This document shows, piece after piece, positions 2,919 through 64,000 of a DNA stretch of 64,000 nucleotides (the first letter of the stretch is position 1; every line of letters starts with the position of its first letter). The position numbers and the translations under genes were made by a program. The notes under the pieces are model-generated. The model had not been told where the DNA came from. It saw only the letters and a list, made by a program, of their open reading frames with translations, and made no database searches. The stretch lies in assembly GCF_046105845.1 (NCBI RefSeq), contig NZ_CP151004.1; one strand, 5' to 3'. This DNA comes from Escherichia coli (GTDB taxonomy: Bacteria; Pseudomonadota; Gammaproteobacteria; Enterobacterales; Enterobacteriaceae).

Positions 2919-3962
2919 TTGATAAAAATAGCAATAATATTACCATCATTGAAAAACGTTGGACCGAATAGAGTTGCACATACTCTTATTAACAAACTAA
3001 GTGATAAAGAAGGTGTATACCTAAAGGTTTTTTATATAAAAAAAGAATTAGGATTAAATTTTACTTGTGATACAGAACTTTTGACTTTAGTTAATGTACG
3101 AAAATTATATGCCTTCGATGTCTTGCATTCACATATGCTTAGGCCAGATGTCTTGGTTGGGCTACTTCCATTTTACAAAGGCCTTAAAATAAGCACAATC
3201 CATAATATAGTGACAGAAGATATACAATATACACATGGTAGTGTGATATCTAAAATTGTCTCTGAATTATGGTTTAGGATTTGGAATAGATTTGATAAGA
3301 TAGTCGTGCTATCAAAAGTAGCAAAAAAATACTATCTGGGACATGGGCTAAAATCTAAAAAATTAGAGATCATATATAATGGAATTGATCTGGATATAGG
3401 AAGTAATATCAATTATGAAGATAAGAAAATAATAGAGGAGTTTAAAGGAGACAGTACTCTTCTGGGAACACTTTGTTTAGCAAATCACAGGAAAGGTATA
3501 GAACAGATTCTTTATGCCTTGCCATTCTTACCTAATTATAAATTTATAATTATTGGTGATGGACCTGTAAGAGAATATTTAGAAAATTTAGCTATAAGTC
3601 TGAATGTAAGAGATCGATTTTTTATTCTGGGCTATAGAGAAAACGCTAAAGATTTACTAAAATATATCGATATTTATCTAATGCCAAGTAGATCGGAAGG
3701 ATTTGGTCTCGCATTGCTTGAGGCTGTTGCAGCAAAAATAACAGTAGTTTGCTCAAATATTCCAATATTTAAAGAAATCTTTACTGAACGACAAGTGTCT
3801 TTTTTTGAATTGGATAATACAAACTCACTTATTCAAGCGATACAGAACTCAATAAGTAATGATATAAATGACGCGTATATAAGGCTAAAACAAAATTATA
3901 GCTCAGATACGATGGCTCGATTATATCATGAATTATATATGACTTGTAAGGAAGTAAAATGA
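2919..3962 (+). CDS. family 1 (GT4-type) glycosyltransferase (O-antigen)
   Basis: 347 aa; C-terminal SRSEGFGLALLEAVAAK motif of retaining GT-B enzymes; TTG start inferred from ORF track. Confidence 0.7.
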   Translation: MIKIAIILPSLKNVGPNRVAHTLINKLSDKEGVYLKVFYIKKELGLNFTCDTELLTLVNVRKLYAFDVLHSHMLRPDVLVGLLPFYKGLKISTIHNIVTEDIQYTHGSVISKIVSELWFRIWNRFDKIVVLSKVAKKYYLGHGLKSKKLEIIYNGIDLDIGSNINYEDKKIIEEFKGDSTLLGTLCLANHRKGIEQILYALPFLPNYKFIIIGDGPVREYLENLAISLNVRDRFFILGYRENAKDLLKYIDIYLMPSRSEGFGLALLEAVAAKITVVCSNIPIFKEIFTERQVSFFELDNTNSLIQAIQNSISNDINDAYIRLKQNYSSDTMARLYHELYMTCKEVK

Positions 3963-16221: not shown

Positions 16222-21738
<5,517 letters not shown>

Positions 21739-21743
21739 GGCGA

Positions 21744-22643
21744 TCACTCCATCATCTTCTCAATCGGCAGGACCAGGATTGAACTGGCACCCAGCGCTTT
21801 CAGTTTTTCCATCGTTTCCCAGAACAGGGTTTCGCTACTGACCATGTGCATCGCTACGCGTTGTTGGTCACCCGCCAGCGGCAGAATGGTTGGGCGTTCG
21901 GCACCTGGCAGCAGGGCGATGACTTCATCCAGACGTTCGGTCGGTGCGTGCATCATGATGTATTTTGATTCGCGCGCCTGGATCACCCCCTGAATACGGG
22001 TCAGCAGTTTGTCGATCAGTTGCTGTTTGGATTCTTCCATTTCGCCATCGCGCTGGATCAGGCAGGCTTTCGAGCGGTAGATAACTTCGACTTCGCGCAG
22101 GCCGTTAGCTTCCAGCGTGGCACCGGTGGAAACCAGATCGCAAATCGCATCCGCCAGTCCGGCACGCGGGGCAACTTCGACAGAACCGTTCAGTAAACAG
22201 GATTTAAAAGAGATGCCTTTCTGGTCGAGATAACGCTTGAGCAGGTGAGGATAAGAGGTGGCGATACGTTTACCGTTTAAGGAGAGCGGGCCATCCCAGG
22301 CTTCATCAACCGGCGTTGCCAGTGAAAGTCGGCAGCCGCCGAAATCCAGACGACGCAGGGTAAAGTAGCGCGGATCTTCACCCTGGGCTCGGCGGTTAAG
22401 CAGCTCTTCTTCCAGCACGTTTTCGCCGATAATCCCGAGGTCAACCACGCCGTCCATTACCAGACCGGGAATGTCGTCATCACGTACGCGCAGAATATCA
22501 ATCGGCATGTTTTCTGCCATCGCGATCAGGCGCTGGGTGTGAAGATTGATTTTAATGCCACAGCGCGCCAGTAATTCGCGTGAGTCATCACTTAAACGGC
22601 CGGATTTCTGCATAGCTATGCGTAAACGAGTGTTGTCTGTCAT
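21744..22643 (-). CDS. hisG: ATP phosphoribosyltransferase
   Basis: 299 aa from [17 protein letters not shown]; ORF track extends 13 codons upstream. Confidence 0.97.
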
Positions 22644-22691
22644 TTTCTTATTCCTCTTTAAACCTGTCTGAACCGTTATCAACCGCGCAAT

Positions 22692-22729
22692 AAAAAAGCC
22701 CCCGGAAGGTGATCTTCCGGGGGCTTTCT
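22692..22729 (-). terminator. his operon attenuator terminator
   Basis: agcccccggaag...cttccgggggct hairpin followed by U-run on the minus strand, between hisL and hisG. Confidence 0.8.
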
Positions 22730-22788
22730 CATGCGTTCATGCACCACTGGAAGATCTGAATGTCTTCCAGCACACATCGCCTGAAAGA

Positions 22789-22839
22789 CTAGTCAGGATG
22801 ATGGTGATGATGGTGGTGTTTAAATTGAACGCGTGTCAT
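22789..22839 (-). CDS. hisL: his operon leader peptide
   Basis: Minus-strand translation MTRVQFKHHHHHHHPD* with seven consecutive His codons. Confidence 0.92.
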   Translation of the reverse strand: MTRVQFKHHHHHHHPD

Positions 22840-23062
22840 AAAAGTCTCTGTGAATGTTTATTCAACTGATGTCTTTTAACCTAAACCACTTTCACGTTAG
22901 AAAGCAAGGGCTTTTTTATATATTTTATGGCGATGGATTTGTTTAATGAATGAGCGGGGCAAGGTGGGTGCCTGGAGTGACTACGTTAGAAAAGAAATCG
23001 TGAAAATATGTCTTTAAAACCCTCAAGAACATTGTGTTCTGTAACTAAAGTGGGCTTTGTTC

Positions 23063-23099
23063 CTGCCGGATGCGGAGTGAATGCCTTATCTGGTCTACA
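23063..23099. repeat. REP-like palindromic element
   Basis: gcctgccggatgcggagtgaatgccttatctggtctaca resembles the REP consensus. Confidence 0.5.
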
Positions 23100-23131
23100 A
23101 ATGTTGCGTAAATTCAATATATTGATGTTTT

Positions 23132-23163
23132 TGTAGGACTGATAAGCGGAGCGCATCAGGCAA
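23132..23163. repeat. REP-like palindromic element (inverted relative to the first)
   Basis: tgtaggactgataagcggagcgcatcaggca; pairs with the preceding REP as a BIME-like unit. Confidence 0.5.
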
Positions 23164-23265
23164 TGGTATATTTGCTAACCGTTTCGATTTCATTCATAGA
23201 ATGAATTGTCAGTTTTGATACGCTAGCGTAGCCTTATAGATCTAAGGTGTATCAGGAGATAACGG

Positions 23266-24090
23266 ATGAAAAAGGTCGCAATTGTCGGGTTAGGGTGGTT
23301 AGGCATGCCGCTGGCAATGTCACTTTCAGCGCGAGGCTGGCAAGTCACCGGGAGTAAAACCACACAAGATGGTGTCGAAGCGGCCCGAATGAGTGGCATT
23401 GATAGCTATCTGCTTCGCATGGAGCCTGAGTTAGTTTGCGATTCTGACGATCTGGATGCCCTGATGGATGCCGATGCGCTGGTCATTACGCTTCCGGCAC
23501 GTCGTAGCGGCCCCGGCGATGAGTTCTATTTACAAGCGGTACAAGAGTTAGTGGATAGCGCGCTGGCCCATCGTATTCCCCGAATTATTTTTACCAGCTC
23601 AACATCTGTCTATGGCGACGCGCAAGGCACGGTTAAAGAAACTACCCCGCGTAATCCGGTAACCAACAGTGGACGAGTATTAGAAGAACTCGAAGACTGG
23701 CTGCACAATTTACCCGGTACTTCGGTCGATATTCTGCGTCTTGCGGGCCTGGTCGGACCGGGACGTCATCCCGGACGCTTCTTTGCCGGAAAAACCGCCC
23801 CTGATGGTGAACATGGTGTTAATTTAGTCCATTTAGAAGATGTTATTGGCGCTATCACTCTGTTGTTACAGGCACCTAAAGGCGGACACATCTATAATAT
23901 ATGTGCGCCAGCTCACCCTGCGCGTAATGTTTTCTATCCGCAGATGGCCCGTTTACTGGGGCTGGAACCTCCGCAGTTCAGAAATAGTCTGGACAGCGGC
24001 AAAGGTAAGATTATTGATGGCAGTCGGATTTGTAATGAACTGGGGTTTGAATACCAGTATCCCGATCCGCTGGTAATGCCGCTGGAGTAA
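23266..24090 (+). CDS. yeeZ: NAD(P)-binding epimerase/dehydratase-family protein
   Basis: 274 aa; VAIVGLGWLG Rossmann N-terminus; synteny with E. coli. Confidence 0.88.
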   Translation: MKKVAIVGLGWLGMPLAMSLSARGWQVTGSKTTQDGVEAARMSGIDSYLLRMEPELVCDSDDLDALMDADALVITLPARRSGPGDEFYLQAVQELVDSALAHRIPRIIFTSSTSVYGDAQGTVKETTPRNPVTNSGRVLEELEDWLHNLPGTSVDILRLAGLVGPGRHPGRFFAGKTAPDGEHGVNLVHLEDVIGAITLLLQAPKGGHIYNICAPAHPARNVFYPQMARLLGLEPPQFRNSLDSGKGKIIDGSRICNELGFEYQYPDPLVMPLE

Positions 24091-54853: not shown

Positions 54854-55014
54854 CATTCAAAACGTCTGGTTTGTCGGTCTGTGTAAGCATTCCGTCATGC
54901 AGAACAGGTTGTTTCGAATCATACAAATGATAATTTTCTTCTCATATGCGCATCTCTTATGAGCATAAACGTTATACTCTTCTGATTTATACATGTTTGC
55001 GGATGACATGATCA

Positions 55015-55992
55015 ATGGAAAAGAGAATGACGAAACAGAATAAAAACAGCCGTTGGCAGGGTTACGATCCTCGTTACATATACTCGCTCGTGGTCAGACG
55101 CTATTTTGCGGATATGAAAACCAAGATTGAGATTGCTGAGGAGCTTGGCGTTTCCCGCTTTAAAGTTGCCAGATTGATCGATGAGGCGATCGAACAGGAT
55201 TACGTGAGGTTTATCTTCCCTAAGCAGCAAGCGATGGATGAAGAAATCGCCAATAATCTACGGAAAAAATTTCATCTGGAAGATGCAATTGTTCTTTCAG
55301 TTGCTGAATCATGGACGACGCAAGAAGAACTCAATCACAAATTGGGTGAAGTCACCGCTGAATATCTTACGCAATCTCTTCATGAAGGTATGAAAGTGGG
55401 GATCGCCTGGGGACGTGTATTATCAAGTACGGTCAGTAAGTTGAGCAAGCTGCCTCCTTTAGACGTTGTGCAGTTATCTGGCGTACATCCGGGGATTGAG
55501 TTTAGTCAAGGGCCAATAGATCTTATTCATAAGATCGCTGCCATTTCGCAGGGAAAAGCGCACCCAATGTACGTGCCGATGTGGGTCGATGACGAAGAGC
55601 TTGCTGCCAGACTGGCAGGTGATCCTGCGGTATTAGATACACAGCAATATTACTCACAGTTGGATGTGGTTATCACCGGGATAGGTGACTGGAAATCAGG
55701 TTCTTCAAGCTTGTGTAAAATATTTCCGGATACCTGGTGCGAAGCTTTGTTTCAACAAGATATCGCTGCGGATGTGTGTATCTCGTTGGTCAGCAGGGAA
55801 GGGAAGATTCTTCATAGTCCTATTGAACGTCTGGGATTTGGCATTTCGACGGATCAACTACAAAAAGCCAAAAAAGTGATTGGTGTCGCCGGAGGGGAAG
55901 AGAAATATGAAGGCATTCTTGCTTCGCTGAAATCTGGACTTTTGAATGTCTTAATTACTGATTTTGATACGGCCATTAAACTTCTGGATTAA
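55015..55992 (+). CDS. SorC-family transcriptional regulator (sugar-binding domain)
   Basis: 325 aa; N-terminal HTH (IAEELGVSRFKVARLI) and C-terminal sugar-binding domain. Confidence 0.8.
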   Translation: MEKRMTKQNKNSRWQGYDPRYIYSLVVRRYFADMKTKIEIAEELGVSRFKVARLIDEAIEQDYVRFIFPKQQAMDEEIANNLRKKFHLEDAIVLSVAESWTTQEELNHKLGEVTAEYLTQSLHEGMKVGIAWGRVLSSTVSKLSKLPPLDVVQLSGVHPGIEFSQGPIDLIHKIAAISQGKAHPMYVPMWVDDEELAARLAGDPAVLDTQQYYSQLDVVITGIGDWKSGSSSLCKIFPDTWCEALFQQDIAADVCISLVSREGKILHSPIERLGFGISTDQLQKAKKVIGVAGGEEKYEGILASLKSGLLNVLITDFDTAIKLLD

Positions 55993-56043
55993 TAGCCGTA
56001 TCTGTGAAGAAAGGGCAGTACCGCTGATTCTGCCCTTTTAATT

Positions 56044-56502
56044 TCAGGATGCTGCGAGCGTATCCTCTACATATTTAGCCACGCGCGTTGCAGGTAAATT
56101 GCGGCAAGTCTCAACAAAGGCGTTATCCTGAAACAGTGTGAATAAACGACGCAATATCGACATATGTTGATCACTGGTGGCAAATGCCAGGTTAAACATA
56201 ATGCTACAATCAACTGTTAAAGCAGCATCTTCCATCTGTCCGAAAGTGACATCATTGGAGAAACGAACAATACTGATGCTGTTTACATTTACCAGCGTGT
56301 AATCGGCATGGGGAATGGCGATACCCTGACCGTTTGCCATCATTAATCCTGTCGGATAGCTTTTTTCACGTTCCAGACAGGCGTCAATGTATTCTGCAGT
56401 GATGTAGCCTTTTTCCAATAATTGCGTACCAGCAAAGGTGATCGCCGTTTGATAGTCGTTGATGCTGTTATCAACATCATTTACCAGAATTTCAAATTTC
56501 AT
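56044..56502 (-). CDS. PTS EIIA component (type 2)
   Basis: 152 aa; conserved phosphorylatable His in GIAIPHAD. Confidence 0.85.
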   Translation of the reverse strand: MKFEILVNDVDNSINDYQTAITFAGTQLLEKGYITAEYIDACLEREKSYPTGLMMANGQGIAIPHADYTLVNVNSISIVRFSNDVTFGQMEDAALTVDCSIMFNLAFATSDQHMSILRRLFTLFQDNAFVETCRNLPATRVAKYVEDTLAAS

Positions 56503-56512
56503 TGCACACCTG

Positions 56513-56797
56513 TTATTTCAGTATCTCTTCTTTAACTGCAGCGAAAATCTCATCTTCGCCCAGACCAGTCAGTAATCCAGCGCCAACGATGACACGAGTA
56601 GTAATGGCCGGGTTATCGAGTTTGGTCGATGAAACCACCAGGTCATAGCTGTTGAAGGTATCGCTGGTGCATGCCATTAACGAAGATTTATCGACTTGCG
56701 CTTCAATTTTCTCTTCTTTCAGTAAGTCCTGCAGTACAGAGACCATGATGGAAGATGAGGCAATTCCGTTTCCGCAAACTACTAAGATTTTTTTCAT
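56513..56797 (-). CDS. PTS EIIB component (galactitol-type)
   Basis: 94 aa; active-site Cys in KILVVCGNGIASS. Confidence 0.85.
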   Translation of the reverse strand: MKKILVVCGNGIASSSIMVSVLQDLLKEEKIEAQVDKSSLMACTSDTFNSYDLVVSSTKLDNPAITTRVIVGAGLLTGLGEDEIFAAVKEEILK

Positions 56798-56820
56798 TTG
56801 ATTATTCCTCTGTAAAAGAT

Positions 56821-58191
56821 TTAAAGCGCTTTTTCTAAATCCGTTTCAATCTGGCGACGTGATTTTTGTTTAATTAAGTATCCAATAGATAACAAAAGGA
56901 TACCTGCCATCACATAGCCAATGATTCCAACATGGCTCAGGGCGGCAAACAGACCAGTAAATGGATTCGCAGACGGGTTAAGCGAAGAGTACATCACGCT
57001 GGCATCCGGGTTTGTACCAAACTTCTGGAAGACTTCGTTGGTAGCCGGTGCCATCCACGATGCAATATACAGACCACCACCGAACAAAATGATCGAGGTC
57101 ACCCAGGTGCGAATAATGTTGCCATTGAAAACAGGCACCATGCAGGCAATGAAAAACACAAACTGAGAGAGGTCACCCAGTGGCATAACGCGGTTGCCGG
57201 GCAAGATCACTGCGAGGATCACAATCACCGGGATCAGTAATAATGCCGGGGCGATAACTGACGGATGACCCACAATCAGGGCAGTGTCCATTCCAACAGT
57301 GATTTGACGATCCGGGAAACGTTTGACCAGTTTTTTGCGTGCCACGTTGGAAAGCGGAACAAGCCCTTCCATCATGATAGAGGTCATACGTGGCAACAGA
57401 AGCATGACTGCAGCCAGATACATCCCTAACTGTAGGCTGGCAATTATGGTGTGGTAGGGGGATTTCCAGCCATAACCACAAAAGCCCAACAAAATACCAA
57501 TAATAAAACCAACCATAGTTGGATCGCCCAGAATGCCAAACCGTTTTTGAATAGTTTCGGCGGTCACATTCAGATTACGGAAGCCTGGGATGCGATCATA
57601 AATCCAGTTGAATGGATAAGCGAAAAGTAAGTAGGTATTGGCAACCGGGTGAGAGATCGCAACACCTTTTGGCAGGTTAAAGAATTTTTCGTTATTTTTA
57701 GCACCGAGATCGGCAGCGATCAGCGCCCAGACATGGAATAGCGCGGCGGTCAATGCGCCATACAGGAAGCTACCAGAATAGACGCCAACAATTGCCCCCA
57801 TTGACGCATTTTGATGAAGGTTGAAAACATCAACGTTAACACAGTCAGTCAGGCGGGCGACCAGCATTGCAATATTTACCGCAACACAGAGGGGAATAAT
57901 GATAGCGCCCATGCTGGAGCCAAATCCCATCACTGCAGTCGCTGCGCCACCAACATCGATGGCACTGAGCGAGGAACCTGTTGCTTCTGCTAATCCGGTG
58001 ACTGCCGGTTGCATTTTTTCCAGCATCAGTTTGATGGTCATGGTTAGCGCAATGAAACCAATGCCGACTTTGATGGCGGAGGAGATACATTCTGAAAGAG
58101 GACGGCCAAGTATCTTCATCAGTACCAGAAAGATGACCGGGATAAATATAAAATTTCCCAGATCGTTTATAAATTGCGTGATCAGTTCCAT
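56821..58191 (-). CDS. PTS EIIC permease (galactitol family)
   Basis: 456 aa polytopic membrane protein. Confidence 0.85.
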   Translation of the reverse strand: MELITQFINDLGNFIFIPVIFLVLMKILGRPLSECISSAIKVGIGFIALTMTIKLMLEKMQPAVTGLAEATGSSLSAIDVGGAATAVMGFGSSMGAIIIPLCVAVNIAMLVARLTDCVNVDVFNLHQNASMGAIVGVYSGSFLYGALTAALFHVWALIAADLGAKNNEKFFNLPKGVAISHPVANTYLLFAYPFNWIYDRIPGFRNLNVTAETIQKRFGILGDPTMVGFIIGILLGFCGYGWKSPYHTIIASLQLGMYLAAVMLLLPRMTSIMMEGLVPLSNVARKKLVKRFPDRQITVGMDTALIVGHPSVIAPALLLIPVIVILAVILPGNRVMPLGDLSQFVFFIACMVPVFNGNIIRTWVTSIILFGGGLYIASWMAPATNEVFQKFGTNPDASVMYSSLNPSANPFTGLFAALSHVGIIGYVMAGILLLSIGYLIKQKSRRQIETDLEKAL

Positions 58192-58194
58192 ACA

Positions 58195-58731
58195 TTAACC
58201 CTCAGATTTTTCATCATCTGGTCGGAAACCCATATTCCAGCGTACATCAGCGGGCTTAACCAGCAATGCATTATCGTTACGTTCAGCTTCTAGTAAGTTC
58301 TTTTTAGAATTTTCTCTGGCGGTGGTGAAGTCGAATGGGTTATCCAACCATGCATCGACAATCATTTTGCTGTATTCGAGATCGTTGACCCGGCAACCCA
58401 GTCCAATAACTTGTGCGTTATTGCTGAGTCGCGCCCGCTTTGCGGAGTAGGGGTTAGTAACCGCAACGGCTCTTATGCCCCAGTGTTTGTTGATCTGACA
58501 AGTAAAGCCAATGCCAGTCCCACAAATGTAAATTCCCAGACGGCACTCATCGCGTTGAATAATGCCTGCCATTTCGTCGGCTAGACGCGCGAAGTTATTG
58601 ACACCTTGTTCCTTACATGTGACGGGATCGTACACGATCTCCATGTTTTTCTCTTCTATGAGGTATTTTTTTATCTCCTCTTTACGTGCAAAACCTACAT
58701 CATCGCTTGCGATAGCAATCTTCGTTTTCAT
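58195..58731 (-). CDS. RpiB/LacAB-family sugar-phosphate isomerase
   Basis: 178 aa; CGTGIGFTCQINKHWGIRAV and KMIVDAWL closely parallel RpiB motifs. Confidence 0.85.
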   Translation of the reverse strand: MKTKIAIASDDVGFARKEEIKKYLIEEKNMEIVYDPVTCKEQGVNNFARLADEMAGIIQRDECRLGIYICGTGIGFTCQINKHWGIRAVAVTNPYSAKRARLSNNAQVIGLGCRVNDLEYSKMIVDAWLDNPFDFTTARENSKKNLLEAERNDNALLVKPADVRWNMGFRPDDEKSEG

Positions 58732-59079
58732 TTCATTTTGCCTGTCGTTAAGTAACTAAAGCCAAGTATGCTGTTGGTAAATATTGGTTGTCAATTGAGA
58801 TCTAAATCACAAAATTTATAACTGATTGATTTTTATGATAAAAAAAACCAATAAAAACAAATAAAAAATAAATTAAGCCAATTGAGACAAATTGGGATTG
58901 TACAGTGGCGTTGTAATGAATAATAAAAACTCATTTATTATCAATCGGATATATGGTTTTTGAACTATTGTCTTTATTGGGTTTATTTGTACTTTCCACT
59001 GTTAGTGTTTGTTTTTGTTTGCATCATCTGTGCTATGCTTGGCGTTTTCTAAGATGGGTAATAGATTTCAGGAGGAAGG

Positions 59080-59835
59080 ATGTATCTGGTTGATGAAAGG
59101 CGAAAGTTAATACTTGAAGACTTAATGTCGGCAGGTACGGTCTATGTCAGTGATCTTGCACGAAAGTATGAAGTAACGTATGAGACCATCAGGAAAGATT
59201 TGACCCATCTTGAACAAAAAGGGCTGCTGATCAAAAGCCATGGTGGGGCGACTTTAAAGCAAAGGGCCATAGAGCATCCCTTTCAGGTCAGGGAAAAAGA
59301 AAATAACTCTTATAAGAAGGCGATAGCTCGTAAAGCGCTTGATTTCATTCCGCCTAATAGTTCGATGATTATCGGTACGGGCAGTACCACTTTTGAGCTG
59401 GCTAACCTGTTATGTATGAAGTCTGGGTTTAAAATCTTCACAGATTCGCTCCCCGTTGCCAGTGTGTTGATTGAATCTGACAATCAGGTTTTTCTCTTTG
59501 GCGGCGAACTGCGTAGAAAGAGTTCCTCAGTGTTTGGGGGGTGGGCGGTATCTATGATCAACGATATACATGTTGATCTCTGTTTCATTGGAACCGACGG
59601 TTTTAGTAACATGACTGGTCCATCGACGCCTTCTTCTTCTGATGCGTTTTTGGATCGCACGATAATTTCGCACTCAGACAAAAAATATATCCTCGGTGAT
59701 TACACCAAGTTTGAGCGCAGCAGTTTGTTTAAGATCTGCGACTGGTCGGAGATCACCGCCCTTATTACCAACGATCATGCCGACAAAGAGGGGATTGCCG
59801 AAGTCGCAAAATACACGTCAGTAATAACCTGTTAG
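59080..59835 (+). CDS. DeoR-family transcriptional repressor
   Basis: 251 aa; N-terminal HTH and DeoR C-terminal sensor domain; divergent from the isomerase-PTS operon. Confidence 0.85.
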   Translation: MYLVDERRKLILEDLMSAGTVYVSDLARKYEVTYETIRKDLTHLEQKGLLIKSHGGATLKQRAIEHPFQVREKENNSYKKAIARKALDFIPPNSSMIIGTGSTTFELANLLCMKSGFKIFTDSLPVASVLIESDNQVFLFGGELRRKSSSVFGGWAVSMINDIHVDLCFIGTDGFSNMTGPSTPSSSDAFLDRTIISHSDKKYILGDYTKFERSSLFKICDWSEITALITNDHADKEGIAEVAKYTSVITC

Positions 59836-60172
59836 AACTCACTACGACACGCCTTCTCTCTTCGAATCAGCTTTGCCAAATGTAATCATTTCATAATTAT
59901 CAAGTGAGCATCCATGGCGATGCTTGCTTAGCGCCCTCTATTGAATACATCCTCTACATATTGCCAGTTTCACTTCATTTTTAGCGACGAAATCATTTTT
60001 TGAATCACGATTTGCTCATATGAGCGTAAATAGTGTCGCCATTATGTGATTTTTTGTGATCTGGATTTAATTTCTCAGATCTCGTCATTTGTCCACAGGA
60101 TCGTTGTGCTATAACTGCTCATATGAAGGTTGTTCAATGCTCATGTGAGCATTGGGGGTGAGGGGGAAGGAT

Positions 60173-60616
60173 ATGATATCGATCAGTGTTGCCGATGGTG
60201 CGGGACTACAGAACTACGATGCCGTGCTTGAACATATTTATAACACGCATCGTGAAACGAATACGGTGAAAGAGAGCTGGCTCAATGCTATGCGTAAACG
60301 CGAAGCGGAATATCCGACAGGAATAGAACTGGAAGGTTATTCTATCGCTATACCACACTGTGATAGTGAACATGCGAATCAACCGGCTATTTACATCATC
60401 CGTCTGCCAGACGCAATACCTGTGAACAGGGCTGATGAAGATGGAATATTGTGGGTCAGACTGGTCGTTAATATCATTGTTACGGATCCTGCTGACCAGC
60501 TTCGATTGTTAAAGTCATTATTTAACCATCTCCAAAATGAAGAATTCTACCAAAACTTACTGACACTTCCCGTCGAGGATGCAAAAGCACTTTTTGTATC
60601 CAGGATAATCCAATAG
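60173..60616 (+). CDS. PTS EIIA component (type 2)
   Basis: 147 aa from the ATG preceded by AGGGGGAAGG; His in IAIPHCD; ORF-track TTG start lies 7 codons upstream. Confidence 0.8.
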   Translation: MISISVADGAGLQNYDAVLEHIYNTHRETNTVKESWLNAMRKREAEYPTGIELEGYSIAIPHCDSEHANQPAIYIIRLPDAIPVNRADEDGILWVRLVVNIIVTDPADQLRLLKSLFNHLQNEEFYQNLLTLPVEDAKALFVSRIIQ

Positions 60617-60634: not shown

Positions 60635-60928
60635 ATGATTAATATTCTTGTTGCTTGTGGTAGCGGTGTCGCTACATCTACGCTTGCTGCTGATGAAGTG
60701 AAGTCAGTATGTGCTGAATATGGTATTACGGCATTTAAAATCAACAAATGCAGTATGGCTGAACTTTCTTCTGAGATGGCTCATGCAGATATTGTACTCA
60801 CAACTAATAATTATAAAGGTGATATTGGGAAACCACATATGAGCGTTGCAGGTTTTGTAACGGGTATTAATGAAGGAGCATTACGCAAGAAATTAGGAGA
60901 GTTATTAACTGAATTAGCAAATAGCTAA
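60635..60928 (+). CDS. PTS EIIB component (galactitol-type)
   Basis: 97 aa; active-site Cys in ILVACGSGVATS. Confidence 0.85.
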   Translation: MINILVACGSGVATSTLAADEVKSVCAEYGITAFKINKCSMAELSSEMAHADIVLTTNNYKGDIGKPHMSVAGFVTGINEGALRKKLGELLTELANS

Positions 60929-60948: not shown

Positions 60949-62202
60949 ATGGAAATGTTGAAAAATTTAATGGAAACAATCACCGGAATGGGGGCGACTG
61001 CAATACTGCCGCTGGTGATATTTATTTTAGGTCTGGTGTTCAGAATGAAACCAGGTGCCGCGATCAAGTCGGGCATCACCGTCGGTATTGGTTTTATTGG
61101 TTTAGGTTTAGTTGTTGGTTTATTAAATAGTTCATTACAGCCAGCTATCGAGTATTACTCAAAAGTAGGCAGTGGTTTTACGGTTGCAGATATTGGTTGG
61201 CCAGCAGTCGGTGCGGCTGCATGGGTAGCACCTTTTGCCGCATTAGTGATACCAGTTGGCATCGTACTTAACCTGATTCTGGTGCGCCTGAAATTAACCA
61301 AAACGTTAAATGTTGATATCTGGAACTATATGCATTTTTTAGTTCCGGGCGCTCTGGCATATTTTGTGTTCGACAGTTTTATCATCGGCTTCTCTGTCGC
61401 GGTGGCTTTGAGTATTGCGGCCCTGTTTATTGGCGATTTGATTGCGCCCAGATGGCAAAAATATTATGGACTCGAGGGAACAACCTGTACCACGATGATT
61501 CATATCGGCTGGACTCTACCGTTCGCCTGGGTAGTAAATAAAATCATTGATTACATCCCTGGGTTAAATAAGTTAGATGTTGACTTAAACAGTGTGCAAA
61601 AACGCCTGGGTGTCTTTGGTGAACCTGCAATTATCGGTGTTATCGTTGGCGCATTACTCGGAGTTTTAACGAAACAGGCAATTACCACAATTGTTCCCAT
61701 GGCGATGGGGGTTGCTGGTGTAATGGTATTGTTACCTAAAGTGGTCGGTGTGCTGATGGAAGGTCTTAACCCGATTGGGAAAAGTGCCAAAGAAATCATG
61801 CAAAAACAGATGGGTAAAGATGCTGAATTAAACATCGGTATGGATTGTGCACTGGCGTTGGGGGATCCGGCGACGGTCACCGTGACAGTCATTACCATTC
61901 CTTTAACTATGCTATGTGCTCTGGTATTGCCTGATATTAAGATCTTCCCAATTGGCGTATTGATGTCAATTATTTATATGACCACCATGACCGTAATGGC
62001 GAGCAACGGTAACGTGATTCGTTCGATTATCTCGACCTTGTTATTCTGCGTTGTAGTGATGTATTTAGGCGGTTATGTCGCACCAGGGGCAACGCAATTT
62101 TTAGCTGGAGCCGGTGTAGGCTTGCAAGGACAAGGTACTGATTTTGTATTAACCGGCCCGTGGGAAATTTTAACCTATTGGTTGAGCACCGTATTACATT
62201 GA
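60949..62202 (+). CDS. PTS EIIC permease (galactitol family)
   Basis: 417 aa polytopic membrane protein. Confidence 0.85.
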   Translation: MEMLKNLMETITGMGATAILPLVIFILGLVFRMKPGAAIKSGITVGIGFIGLGLVVGLLNSSLQPAIEYYSKVGSGFTVADIGWPAVGAAAWVAPFAALVIPVGIVLNLILVRLKLTKTLNVDIWNYMHFLVPGALAYFVFDSFIIGFSVAVALSIAALFIGDLIAPRWQKYYGLEGTTCTTMIHIGWTLPFAWVVNKIIDYIPGLNKLDVDLNSVQKRLGVFGEPAIIGVIVGALLGVLTKQAITTIVPMAMGVAGVMVLLPKVVGVLMEGLNPIGKSAKEIMQKQMGKDAELNIGMDCALALGDPATVTVTVITIPLTMLCALVLPDIKIFPIGVLMSIIYMTTMTVMASNGNVIRSIISTLLFCVVVMYLGGYVAPGATQFLAGAGVGLQGQGTDFVLTGPWEILTYWLSTVLH

Positions 62203-62224: not shown

Positions 62225-62869
62225 ATGGCAAAAATATTACCTTCTATATTTGGCGCGGATATTTTACGCCTGAAAGATGAAATTCATTTTCTGGAAGAGG
62301 AACAAACCGAAATATTGCACGTTGATTTAATGGATGGCACTTACGTCAGTAATATTGCCTTTGGCCCAAATCAAATTGCAGCAATGAAAAAAGCCAGTTC
62401 GATGATCTTTGACGTGCATATGATGCTGGCAAATCCTGAGCGACATATTGATGATGTAATCAATACCGGGGCGGAGATGATTTCTGTACATTATGAGTCG
62501 ACGCCACATGTGCATTATATTATTCAAAAAATCAAAAAAGCGGGGCGCAAAGCAGGTGTTGTGCTTAATCCTGGGACACCTGAATCTGTCATCGAGTATT
62601 TATTAGATGATATTGATTATATATTGTTAATGACAATTAATCCGGGGCAACTAGGCCAGACATTTATTCATAAAAGCCTGGAGAAAATCCGTAACACCAA
62701 AAAATTGATATCTGGCAGAGATATTCAAATTGAAGTGGATGGTGGCGTTAATCTTGATAATGTGAAACAAGTTAAAGAAGCGGGGGCTGACCTTATTGTT
62801 GTTGGCGGTGCATTATTTAACAAACAGCCTCATGAAAGTTATCAGGCATTAAAAATCGCTGTTCAGTGA
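62225..62869 (+). CDS. ribulose-phosphate 3-epimerase family protein
   Basis: 214 aa TIM-barrel epimerase signature (HVDLMDG, MTINPGQ). Confidence 0.85.
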   Translation: MAKILPSIFGADILRLKDEIHFLEEEQTEILHVDLMDGTYVSNIAFGPNQIAAMKKASSMIFDVHMMLANPERHIDDVINTGAEMISVHYESTPHVHYIIQKIKKAGRKAGVVLNPGTPESVIEYLLDDIDYILLMTINPGQLGQTFIHKSLEKIRNTKKLISGRDIQIEVDGGVNLDNVKQVKEAGADLIVVGGALFNKQPHESYQALKIAVQ

Positions 62870-62964: not shown

Positions 62965-63717
62965 ATGAGTAATTTTGCAGGTAAAGTGGTTTTAGTTACC
63001 GGAGGTGCTCACGGTATTGGCAAAGGGATAGCTAAACAATTTGCTGATCGTGGTGCACATACTGTTATTGTTGACTATAACGAAGAGAACGGCAAGGCCA
63101 CTGCAGCAGAGTTAACTTTTGGCGATGTTAAATCGCTGTTTGTTAAAACAGATGTCTCCGATCCACAGGCATTAGTGGATGTACGGGAAAAAGTATTTGC
63201 TACCTTTGGTCGTATTGATGTGTTGATATTAAATGCCGGTGTGGCATTTGCCAATAAAGTTAACAATATTTCTTTTGAGGAATGGAATAAGACTATCGCA
63301 ATTAACTTATCGGGATTATTTAATACCGTTAAGGCATTTTATGATGATTTCCTGACAAATAAGGGATCTATTGTTTATATCTCATCGGGATCAGCGCTTT
63401 CGGGGACTGGGGGCGGCGTGAGCTATCCTGCCAGTAAAGCGGGAGGCGAAGGATTGATTCGTGGTCTGGCAAAAGAGTTAGGACCAAAAGGCGTAAATGT
63501 TAATGCGATTGCTCCCCGCTTAATAGACACCGGAGATATGATGCGGGTCAACTATCCAACACAAGCCGATTTAGACGCTGTCCTGGAAAAAATACCCGTC
63601 CGTCGTCTGGGGACTATCGATGATGTGGCTAACCTGGCAATATTTTTGGCAGATAAAGATAACTCTTATATTCAGGGACAAACCATTTTAATGGATGGTG
63701 GCCGGACTATTGCTTAA
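62965..63717 (+). CDS. short-chain dehydrogenase/reductase (SDR)
   Basis: 250 aa; TGGAHGIGK NAD-binding motif and YxxxK catalytic motif (YPASK). Confidence 0.88.
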   Translation: MSNFAGKVVLVTGGAHGIGKGIAKQFADRGAHTVIVDYNEENGKATAAELTFGDVKSLFVKTDVSDPQALVDVREKVFATFGRIDVLILNAGVAFANKVNNISFEEWNKTIAINLSGLFNTVKAFYDDFLTNKGSIVYISSGSALSGTGGGVSYPASKAGGEGLIRGLAKELGPKGVNVNAIAPRLIDTGDMMRVNYPTQADLDAVLEKIPVRRLGTIDDVANLAIFLADKDNSYIQGQTILMDGGRTIA

Positions 63718-63731
63718 AAAGGGAGAGGAAA

Positions 63732-64000
63732 AATGAGTGTTCAGGAAAATACTCTTAATATTCTGCATGAATTAGAGAGTAATGCACTGAAGATTGACGA
63801 TGCTCAGGCTGCACAGTTTATTTCGCAAATCAGAAATGCCCGGCATATTTTTTTGCAGGGAGCTGGGCGCAGTGGCATTGCTATTCGCGCTTTTGCTAAT
63901 CGCTTGCTGCATTTAGGTTTTTCAGTAAGCGTTGTGGGAGAAATATCATCACCGCATACCCAACCTGGAGATCTATTAATTATTGGGTCAGGCAGTGGTG
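63732..64000 (+). CDS. SIS-domain sugar-phosphate isomerase, 5' portion (runs off window end)
   Basis: ATG at 63732; GAGRSGIA phosphosugar-binding motif typical of SIS domains. Confidence 0.7.

Follow-up and report, generated by a model that had tools for sequence, protein, structure and literature searches.

The stretch analysed here (the window) comprises 64,000 nucleotides of one strand of the Escherichia coli contig NZ_CP151004.1 (assembly GCF_046105845.1), and our subject is the palindrome GCTCAT(A/G)TGAGC, which recurs in an accessory sugar island within it. The gene order of the island was taken from the RefSeq annotation of the same island and from the list of open reading frames (ORFs). 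It runs from ldtA to the gene of a SorC-family "sugar-binding transcriptional regulator" of 321 amino acids (55027-55992, plus strand; RefSeq annotation), then to a first phosphotransferase system (PTS) operon on the minus strand (IIA, IIB, IIC, and an RpiB-like isomerase, 56044-58731), to the gene of a DeoR/GlpR-family regulator (59080-59835, plus strand), and to a second PTS operon on the plus strand. The genes of the latter, identified from ORFs, RefSeq, and NCBIfam matches, are IIA (60173-60616), IIB (60635-60928), IIC (60949-62202), a ribulose-phosphate-3-epimerase-like gene (rpe, 62225-62869), an SDR dehydrogenase (62965-63717), and a 6-phospho-3-hexuloisomerase (hxlB), which starts at around 63734 and is truncated by the end of the window at 64000. 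The island is present in 281 of the 5,426 complete E. coli genomes (around 5%), on the chromosome in every case, and several other Enterobacterales also carry it. When the DeoR-type protein, WP_000281586.1, was searched against 100,044 species genomes, the whole island was returned from Entomohabitans, Citrobacter, Enterobacter wuhouensis, Klebsiella oxytoca, Enterobacter sp. EA-1, and Providencia. A literature search on the gene set of the island found no account of the second PTS operon.

Reading the sequence and searching for the motif both place three copies of the palindrome in the 338-bp gap that separates the DeoR-type gene from the second PTS operon, and a repeat finder groups them in a single family whose successive starts are 103 and 22 bp apart. 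The strongest copy, O3 (GCTCATGTGAGC, 60139-60150), is an exact match located 20 nt 5' of the IIA start codon, and it is also found in three more distant loci (L013, L014, and L019, described below). O2 (GCTCATATGAAG, 60117-60128) is its weaker partner, a half-operator with a perfect left half and a degenerate right half, whose centre lies 22 bp from that of O3. O1 (GCTCATATGAGC, 60014-60025) is a perfect match 103 bp 5' of O2. These copies had been picked out before by a model that saw the letters and the ORFs (the sequence-only reading). Its placement of the first one, TGCTCATATGAGC at 60013-60025, is exact. For the other two the sequences are right and the positions are off by one nucleotide: TGCTCATATGAAG lies at 60116-60128 rather than 60117-60129, and ATGCTCATGTGAGCAT, which contains O3, at 60137-60152 rather than 60138-60153. 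The proximity of the latter to the EIIA start was also correctly described, as ATGCTCATGTGAGCAT ends 20 nt before the annotated IIA ATG at 60173.

A fourth site, O0 (ATCAAGTGAGCA, 59898-59909), has decayed in E. coli, where the right half alone is retained. In other genera the same position, around 120 bp 5' of O1, is occupied by GCTCATAAGAGC or GCTCATGTGAGC; with the weight matrix presented below, the aligned site scores 19-22 in five loci (L002, L003, L004, L007, and L009) and 10.6 in E. coli. We also looked for a weak partner of O1 at 21-22 bp to either side and found nothing convincing, so that O1 appears to be a lone palindrome. Within the library searched, the palindrome string returned no use of the motif in this sense and one unrelated occurrence. 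The decayed O0 half-site and the sequence downstream form an inverted repeat of their own (AAGTGAGCATC / GATGCTTGCTT, 59902-59929, arms 6 nt apart), which does not vary among six E. coli alleles and lies around 70 nt past the deoR stop codon; no run of T follows it, and it may be a transcript-end hairpin.

Counting loose matches to the consensus gave 12 strand-matches with at most two mismatches in the window, for 7.9 expected. This is not significant alone, and we used a weight matrix and a conservation test instead. All six distinct sites of this loose kind are inside the island, five of them in non-coding sequence. The matrix covers 18 bp and was built from 26 sites, all from other genera; the loci L015, L017, L018, and L019 were not in the training set. 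The seven top matches of the window are all within the island: O3 (60139) with 25.6, O1 (60014) with 23.3, O2 (60117) with 13.0, two positions in the sorC promoter (54940 and 54953) with 12.6 and 12.4, one position in IIB (60833) with 12.3, and O0 (59898) with 10.6. The best match elsewhere scores 8.8. Since the maximum over 300 Markov-simulated windows was 23.4, and around one match scoring at least 12 is expected per 64 kb, the two strong sites O1 and O3 are individually significant, while the weak sites are so through their position and conservation only. The idea of a dispersed intergenic repeat, similar to repetitive extragenic palindromes or bacterial interspersed mosaic elements, was discarded because nothing scores above 8.8 in the remaining 58 kb or so of the window. 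Across around 250 kb of related loci there were no strong sites outside sorC-linked regulatory regions, save for a stretch of IIB codons. The latter corresponds to 60833-60844, where the motif-like CCACATATGAGC lies in the IIB coding sequence and is conserved in five genera. It was considered as a fifth operator and rejected: the codons for Pro-His-Met-Ser account for the match, which is gone where the peptide is PYMN, and it is thus most likely a coding coincidence.

Comparing E. coli with six other enterobacterial genera, we found that 22 of the 36 columns of O1-O3 are invariant, for 18 of the 251 other intergenic columns (Fisher p = 3.6e-13). The spacer between deoR and IIA is poorly conserved overall, with a mean column identity of 0.61, to be compared with 0.94 for O1, 0.85 for O2, 0.95 for O3, 0.94 for an extended -10 element (TGnTATAAC), and 0.89 for a pair of TGTGAT boxes. 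Nine of the 12 columns of O3 and seven of the 12 of O1 are invariant in these seven genera, and the left half of O2 and its TGA are kept in all orthologous loci. The spacing between O2 and O3 is 20-23 bp across 10 loci. O1 and O2 are separated by 103 bp in E. coli as in five further genera, and by 94 bp in a Vibrio-like contig (L019). The 100 bp seen in Enterobacter sp. EA-1 (L009) should not be trusted: nearly all island genes of this "complete" genome (CP025776.1) are split over several frames, which suggests many indel sequencing errors. At the level of sequence, conservation of the palindromes extends from E. coli to loci of Vibrio-like, Pasteurellaceae, and alphaproteobacterial origin.

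The same contrast is visible within E. coli. The spacer (59836-60172) is 87-95% identical between genomes, whereas the flanking genes and the 5.6-kb region around them are around 98.7% identical, and 178 of the 225 matching genomes are less than 90% identical over the spacer. A divergence so far above that of the surrounding genes suggests distinct spacer alleles or recombination. Among six such alleles, the only changes in O1-O3 affect the central A/G and a single flanking base, and the letters between O2 and O3 vary freely while their number is constant. One allele has a 12-bp deletion just 5' of O1.

The extended -10 element of the second PTS operon is probably TGcTATAAC (60107-60115, plus strand), which matches the consensus and has seven of nine columns invariant in seven genera; it is preceded, at a spacer of 17 bp, by a weak -35 (ATTTGT). 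O2 starts 1 nt 3' of the -10 hexamer. Around 47 bp 5' of the -10 lie the TGTGAT boxes (TGTGATTTTTTGTGATC, 60045-60070, plus strand; 9 of 17 columns invariant). The Glaesserella ortholog matches the CRP consensus perfectly at an equivalent distance (TGTGATCTTGATCACA), and there the assignment to CRP is convincing. The E. coli element has a single half-site, its right half being poor, and we tentatively regard it as a possible CRP half-site. The Vibrio-like locus has TGTGATCACA at this position, without the 6-bp spacer. We also considered whether the palindrome itself could be a CRP site and rejected it, as GCTCA-N2-TGAGC is unlike TGTGA-N6-TCACA and separate TGTGA boxes lie further 5'.

Which protein would bind these sites? 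The sequence-only reading had named the adjacent DeoR or SorC regulator. The SorC-type protein, WP_001524950.1, has a short N-terminal helix-turn-helix (HTH) followed by the sugar-binding domain PF04198, which is also present in all its homologs. It aligns over its full length, HTH included, with Klebsiella pneumoniae SorC (2w48) and Bacillus subtilis DeoR (8r7y), and falls below every NCBIfam equivalog cut-off; judging from these comparisons, it is a distant member of the SorC/DeoR subfamily. Its recognition helix, SRFKVARLI, is invariant in SorC orthologs down to 43% identity. We traced its homologs to their contigs, where the absence of a DeoR-type gene was judged in fragments of at most 19 kb. 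The palindrome is present in L002-L004, L006, L007, L009, L013, L014, L017, L018, and L019, all of which have a sorC ortholog, and absent from L008 and L010, neither of which has one.

The O2/O3 pair recurs wherever the SorC ortholog adjoins sugar genes of the rpe/hxlB type, even when the rest of the locus has changed. In Glaesserella (L013, SorC 62% identical), sorC is found with hxlB-SDR-rpe-IIC-IIB-IIA, with neither a DeoR gene nor a second PTS, and the region 5' of IIA has the perfect CRP site, a -10, CACTCATATGATT and ACTCATATGAGCA separated by 22 bp (a pair also given as ACTCATATGATT ...22 bp... ACTCATATGAGC), and then the ribosome-binding site. In Rouxiella (L014, 61%), sorC is within the operon and is preceded by TGCTCATGTGTT ...22 bp... 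TGCTCATATGAGCA, again with no DeoR gene. The locus L017 (61%) has a kinase/MFS version of the pathway instead of the PTS and no DeoR gene; two of its sites, with scores of 19.2 and 13.7, are separated by 21 bp, and another (13.9) lies just 5' of rpe. The most distant case is an alphaproteobacterial metagenome contig (L018, 43%) with the order SorC-SIS-kinase-ABC transporter-rpe and no DeoR gene, where GCTCAAATGAGC-N8-GCTCACTTGACG, found between sorC and the SIS gene, scores 18.4 and is the sole match in 17 kb. In Gilliamella (L015, 47%), where the PTS is of the mannose type, ACTCAT and ATGAGC remain as outer half-sites, at a distance of 21 bp. The modules of the Vibrio-like locus (L019, 74%) are rearranged, with sorC directly 5' of IIA-IIB-IIC-rpe-SDR-SIS and site scores of 26.2 for O1, 14.5 for O2, and 21.3 for O3. 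In L016 (SorC 58%, kinase and HAD genes) a weak pair, GCTCATAAGTAC...GCCATGTGAGTA, is below the matrix threshold and was not counted as support.

The position of the deoR gene would suggest another binder. It lies immediately 5' of the second PTS operon on the same strand, it adjoins the palindromes in E. coli and in the six other enterobacterial genera, O0 lies just past its stop codon, and in Proteus (L005) a weak remnant resembling O0 is found after the DeoR ortholog. Still, it is quite improbable that the DeoR/GlpR-family regulator (59080-59835) binds the palindromes and controls the second PTS operon, since the pair is found with SorC orthologs in L013, L014, L017, and L018, none of which has a DeoR gene, and the DeoR orthologs go with a different repeat. 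In the actinobacterium Thermophilibacter (L008), a DeoR ortholog 62% identical to that of E. coli is paired with the RpiB/PTS operon only; the divergent region (L008:6789-6931) has six matches to ACCAAT-N4-ACCAAT, for 0.21 expected, and no palindrome site scores 9 or more in this locus. The DeoR gene of L019 lies away from the palindromes and diverges from RpiB-IIC-IIB-IIA, and the ACCAAT repeats recur in this divergent region (L019:8179-8410). The three best matches to ACCAAT-N4-ACCAAT in the window are all in the rpiB-deoR divergent region. The closest named relative of the DeoR-type regulator is AgaR, and the AgaR group binds direct-repeat-type sites. As the ACCAAT repeats track the DeoR ortholog and the palindrome is absent from L008, the repeats are probably separate operators, through which the DeoR-type regulator would control the RpiB/PTS operon and its own gene. 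Hence, of the two binders first proposed, SorC holds up, because the palindrome follows its ortholog, and DeoR does not, because it follows the other PTS/RpiB operon and ACCAAT-N4-ACCAAT.

A regulator encoded elsewhere, global or unlinked, could also bind the palindromes, the link with sorC being then a matter of shared locus ancestry only. That link was indeed drawn from sequence comparison, with the other genomes represented by fragments. Yet the sorC ortholog is the sole regulator gene common to six gene arrangements (with two kinds of PTS, kinase and MFS, or kinase and ABC transporter) that span Gamma- and Alphaproteobacteria, the motif is also in the promoter of sorC itself, and it is unlike the CRP consensus that occurs separately in the same regions. 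We thus consider an outside regulator improbable.

The sites in the sorC promoter are less clear than those of the spacer. The sequence-only reading had noticed there an inverted repeat, CTCATATG-N7-CTTATGAG, whose sequence is right and whose span is 54941-54963, the end given as 54966 adding three bases. It is motif-like, as had been noted, and resolves into two weak adjacent copies, TCTCATATGCGC (54940-54951) and TCTCTTATGAGC (54953-54964), of which only the right-hand TGAGC half-site (54960-54964) is conserved across genera: it is invariant in six of them, just 5' of a conserved TATACT. The matrix that scores these copies was not trained on the sorC-promoter region. The TATACT, which is -10-like, is part of a conserved block (TATACTCTTCTGATT, 54973-54987, plus strand) and overlaps a possible third weak site (score 5.4 in E. 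coli); in Citrobacter, Enterobacter, and Klebsiella this block is the palindrome ACTCTTTTGAGT. In the Vibrio-like locus, a good site, GACTCATATGAGCT, lies 5' of its own sorC. With lower confidence than for the spacer, these sites suggest autoregulation of sorC.

Since the palindrome follows SorC orthologs, including in loci without a DeoR gene, we assign it to the SorC-type regulator. Our favoured reading, to which we give a probability of roughly 0.75, is that the palindromes are operators of the SorC-family regulator of the island (55027-55992) and that O2 and O3 make up a two-part repressor operator for the second PTS operon. Repressors of the SorC family are tetramers (dimers of dimers) that bind a pair of half-operators on the same DNA face; one of the pair is often much the weaker, and sugar phosphates loosen the tetramer-DNA assembly (PMC11229326). 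A weak O2 and a strong O3, with centres 20-23 bp apart, fit such a tetramer. O3 lies two helical turns 3' of O2, and the two 12-bp pseudo-palindromes would thus be on one helix face and form an operator of around 34 bp, each palindrome being bound by one dimer of DNA-binding domains. Starting as it does 1 nt past the extended -10, O2 would be expected to overlie the transcription start, with O3 in the early transcribed region and the tetramer covering roughly -8 to +32. Its presence would block RNA polymerase and repress IIA-IIB-IIC-rpe-SDR-hxlB, until a phosphorylated sugar intermediate of the pathway releases it, as in other members of the family. O1, 103 bp away, and O0 would be auxiliary sites that raise the local concentration of repressor or permit looping; the weaker sites near the sorC -10 would allow autoregulation, and the conserved TGTGA box co-activation by CRP. 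The sequence-only reading had proposed repressor operators, and this part is supported by the conservation footprints across genera and within E. coli, by the placement of O2 and O3 at the extended -10, and by the recurrence of the pair in independent loci.

The same pair could instead act as RNA, as a hairpin that lies in the 5' untranslated region, just 5' of the ribosome-binding site, and controls translation or the stability of the mRNA. O2 and O3 can pair in a 10-bp stem (-15.9 kcal/mol), and their central bases (TG in O2, CA in O3) are complementary in Citrobacter, Enterobacter, and Klebsiella. But complementarity arises by construction for any two copies of a palindromic operator, the fold is no better than that of shuffled sequences (z = -1.6, with 18 of 200 shuffles equally stable), and the central pairs are broken in L002 (one mismatch) and L009 (two mismatches). 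There is no Rfam match with an E-value below 0.68. A hairpin also leaves unexplained O1 and O0, which lie 5' of the promoter, the copies in the sorC promoter, and the fact that each site is itself palindromic. We regard a role as RNA as very improbable.

Several points weigh against control by SorC through a two-part operator. The loci L013, L014, L017, and L018 were seen as fragments of at most 19 kb, and a DeoR-type gene could sit elsewhere in these genomes. The sites of the sorC promoter are weak (around 12, a score for which around one chance match is expected per 64 kb) and their spacings, 13 and 23-24 bp, are unlike the geometry of O2/O3. The position of O2 over the transcription start derives from the match of the -10 to its consensus, and the motif scan covered the 64-kb window and around 250 kb of related loci. 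Finally, SorC of K. pneumoniae is reported to act both as an activator and as a repressor, and O1 and O0 may therefore serve activation.

The part played by O1 and O0 could be larger than that of auxiliary sites. Its conserved distance to O2 makes O1 compatible with cooperative or looped binding, and 103 and 94 bp, each near a whole number of helical turns, would fit a repression loop. A more ambitious proposal, which we judge unlikely, is that O1 and an intact O0 are non-redundant and close a repression loop around the CRP-like site in a new higher-order assembly of SorC tetramers, and that the regulon marks a widespread sugar pathway of hexuloisomerase and Rpe/AlsE-like enzymes outside methylotrophy, fed by PTS, MFS, or ABC transporters depending on the lineage. 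If true, the assembly would go beyond the SorC-family tetramers structurally known, which are on contiguous half-operators only.

The proposed arrangement resembles several known systems in part. B. subtilis DeoR has the same protein layout, a short homeodomain-like HTH and a sugar-phosphate-binding domain (full-length alignment, E = 3e-17), its gene is next to the catabolic operon, and its dra-nupC-pdp operator consists of two half-operators, including a promoter palindrome, bound by a tetramer (PMC11229326). However, it is only around 25-30% identical to the SorC-type protein, which falls below the NCBIfam cut-off (131 vs 420 bits). The half-site there is TTCAA, instead of GCTCA/TGAGC, the pathway differs, and the operator is at -60 to -21, whereas here it is over and just after the -10, with the distal O1 and O0 in addition. 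The operator of B. subtilis CggR at gapA likewise combines a strong half with a weak one and lies downstream of the transcription start, with a self-controlled repressor gene and sugar-phosphate effectors (PMC11229326), but it is a 45-bp element at +32 to +77 with another sequence, and CggR has a winged-helix DNA-binding domain of around 100 amino acids in place of the short SorC/DeoR-type domain found here. The best solved full-length relative is K. pneumoniae SorC of the sorbose operon (2w48, E = 2e-22), followed by E. coli LsrR (4l5i, E = 9e-15), both of them tetramers, which between them control a PTS sugar operon and a phospho-sugar pathway. Neither is an ortholog of the SorC-type protein (77 bits with the LsrR model, for a cut-off of 486), the genes regulated here are rpe-like, SDR, hxlB, and a Gat-superfamily PTS, and the likeness is drawn from the proteins. 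As for the lac, gal, and E. coli deo operons, they share with this locus a main promoter operator with distal copies, here at around 100 bp (O1) and 220 bp (O0), and a CRP-like site in between. Their regulators are of other families, and looping is suggested here by the 103- and 94-bp spacings only.

These results connect an accessory sugar island, hitherto uncharacterised, with a specific DNA motif and, with the probability given above, with a specific regulator. They also split the island in two modules, one with the SorC-type regulator and PTS-rpe-SDR-hxlB and the other with the DeoR-type regulator and PTS-RpiB. The type of regulatory element is well known, and the result is sound but ordinary and leaves general principles unchanged. 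The weight matrix is ready for finding the regulon in other genomes, and the conserved strong/weak two-part operator offers a simple natural system in which to test the recently solved model of the SorC tetramer on DNA.

Other features of the DeoR-linked module were seen along the way. The direct repeats of the window (58773-58892 and 58972-59020) have a 10-bp period and read ACCAATATTTACCAAC, ACCAATAAAAACAAAT, and GCCAATTGAGACAAAT, to which inspection by eye adds GCAAACAAAAACAAAC on the minus strand; such ACCAAT repeats are conserved next to DeoR/GlpR-type orthologs in Enterobacterales, in the Vibrio-like contig, and in Thermophilibacter. The conserved TTGACA/CATACT promoter of the minus-strand rpiB-PTS operon has beside it, at 58797-58812, a good CRP-like dyad (read on the minus strand as TGTGATTTAGATCTCA), which varies little or not at all among six genera. 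In Proteus vulgaris (L005:800-900), where the DeoR ortholog is 88% identical, the O0-like remnant (GCTCATTAGAGG) is weak and located around 80 bp after the gene, which is not followed by a PTS-rpe-SDR-hxlB operon; the contig ends 47 bp 5' of the gene, and the arrangement looks like a scar of deletion or rearrangement. In some loci (L003:3360-4148, L007:3359-3889, L009 at around 3380-3880, and L008:3845-4381), the DeoR-linked PTS/RpiB module includes a second gene of the hxlB-like (SIS) kind, which E. coli lacks, and both modules thus seem to feed a hexulose-phosphate isomerase step. Finally, the core genes at 20000-24000, in the region of the his operon, are at most 98.0% identical to any of the 5,426 complete E. 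coli genomes, and by this measure the window is from a somewhat divergent Escherichia lineage without a close representative among them.

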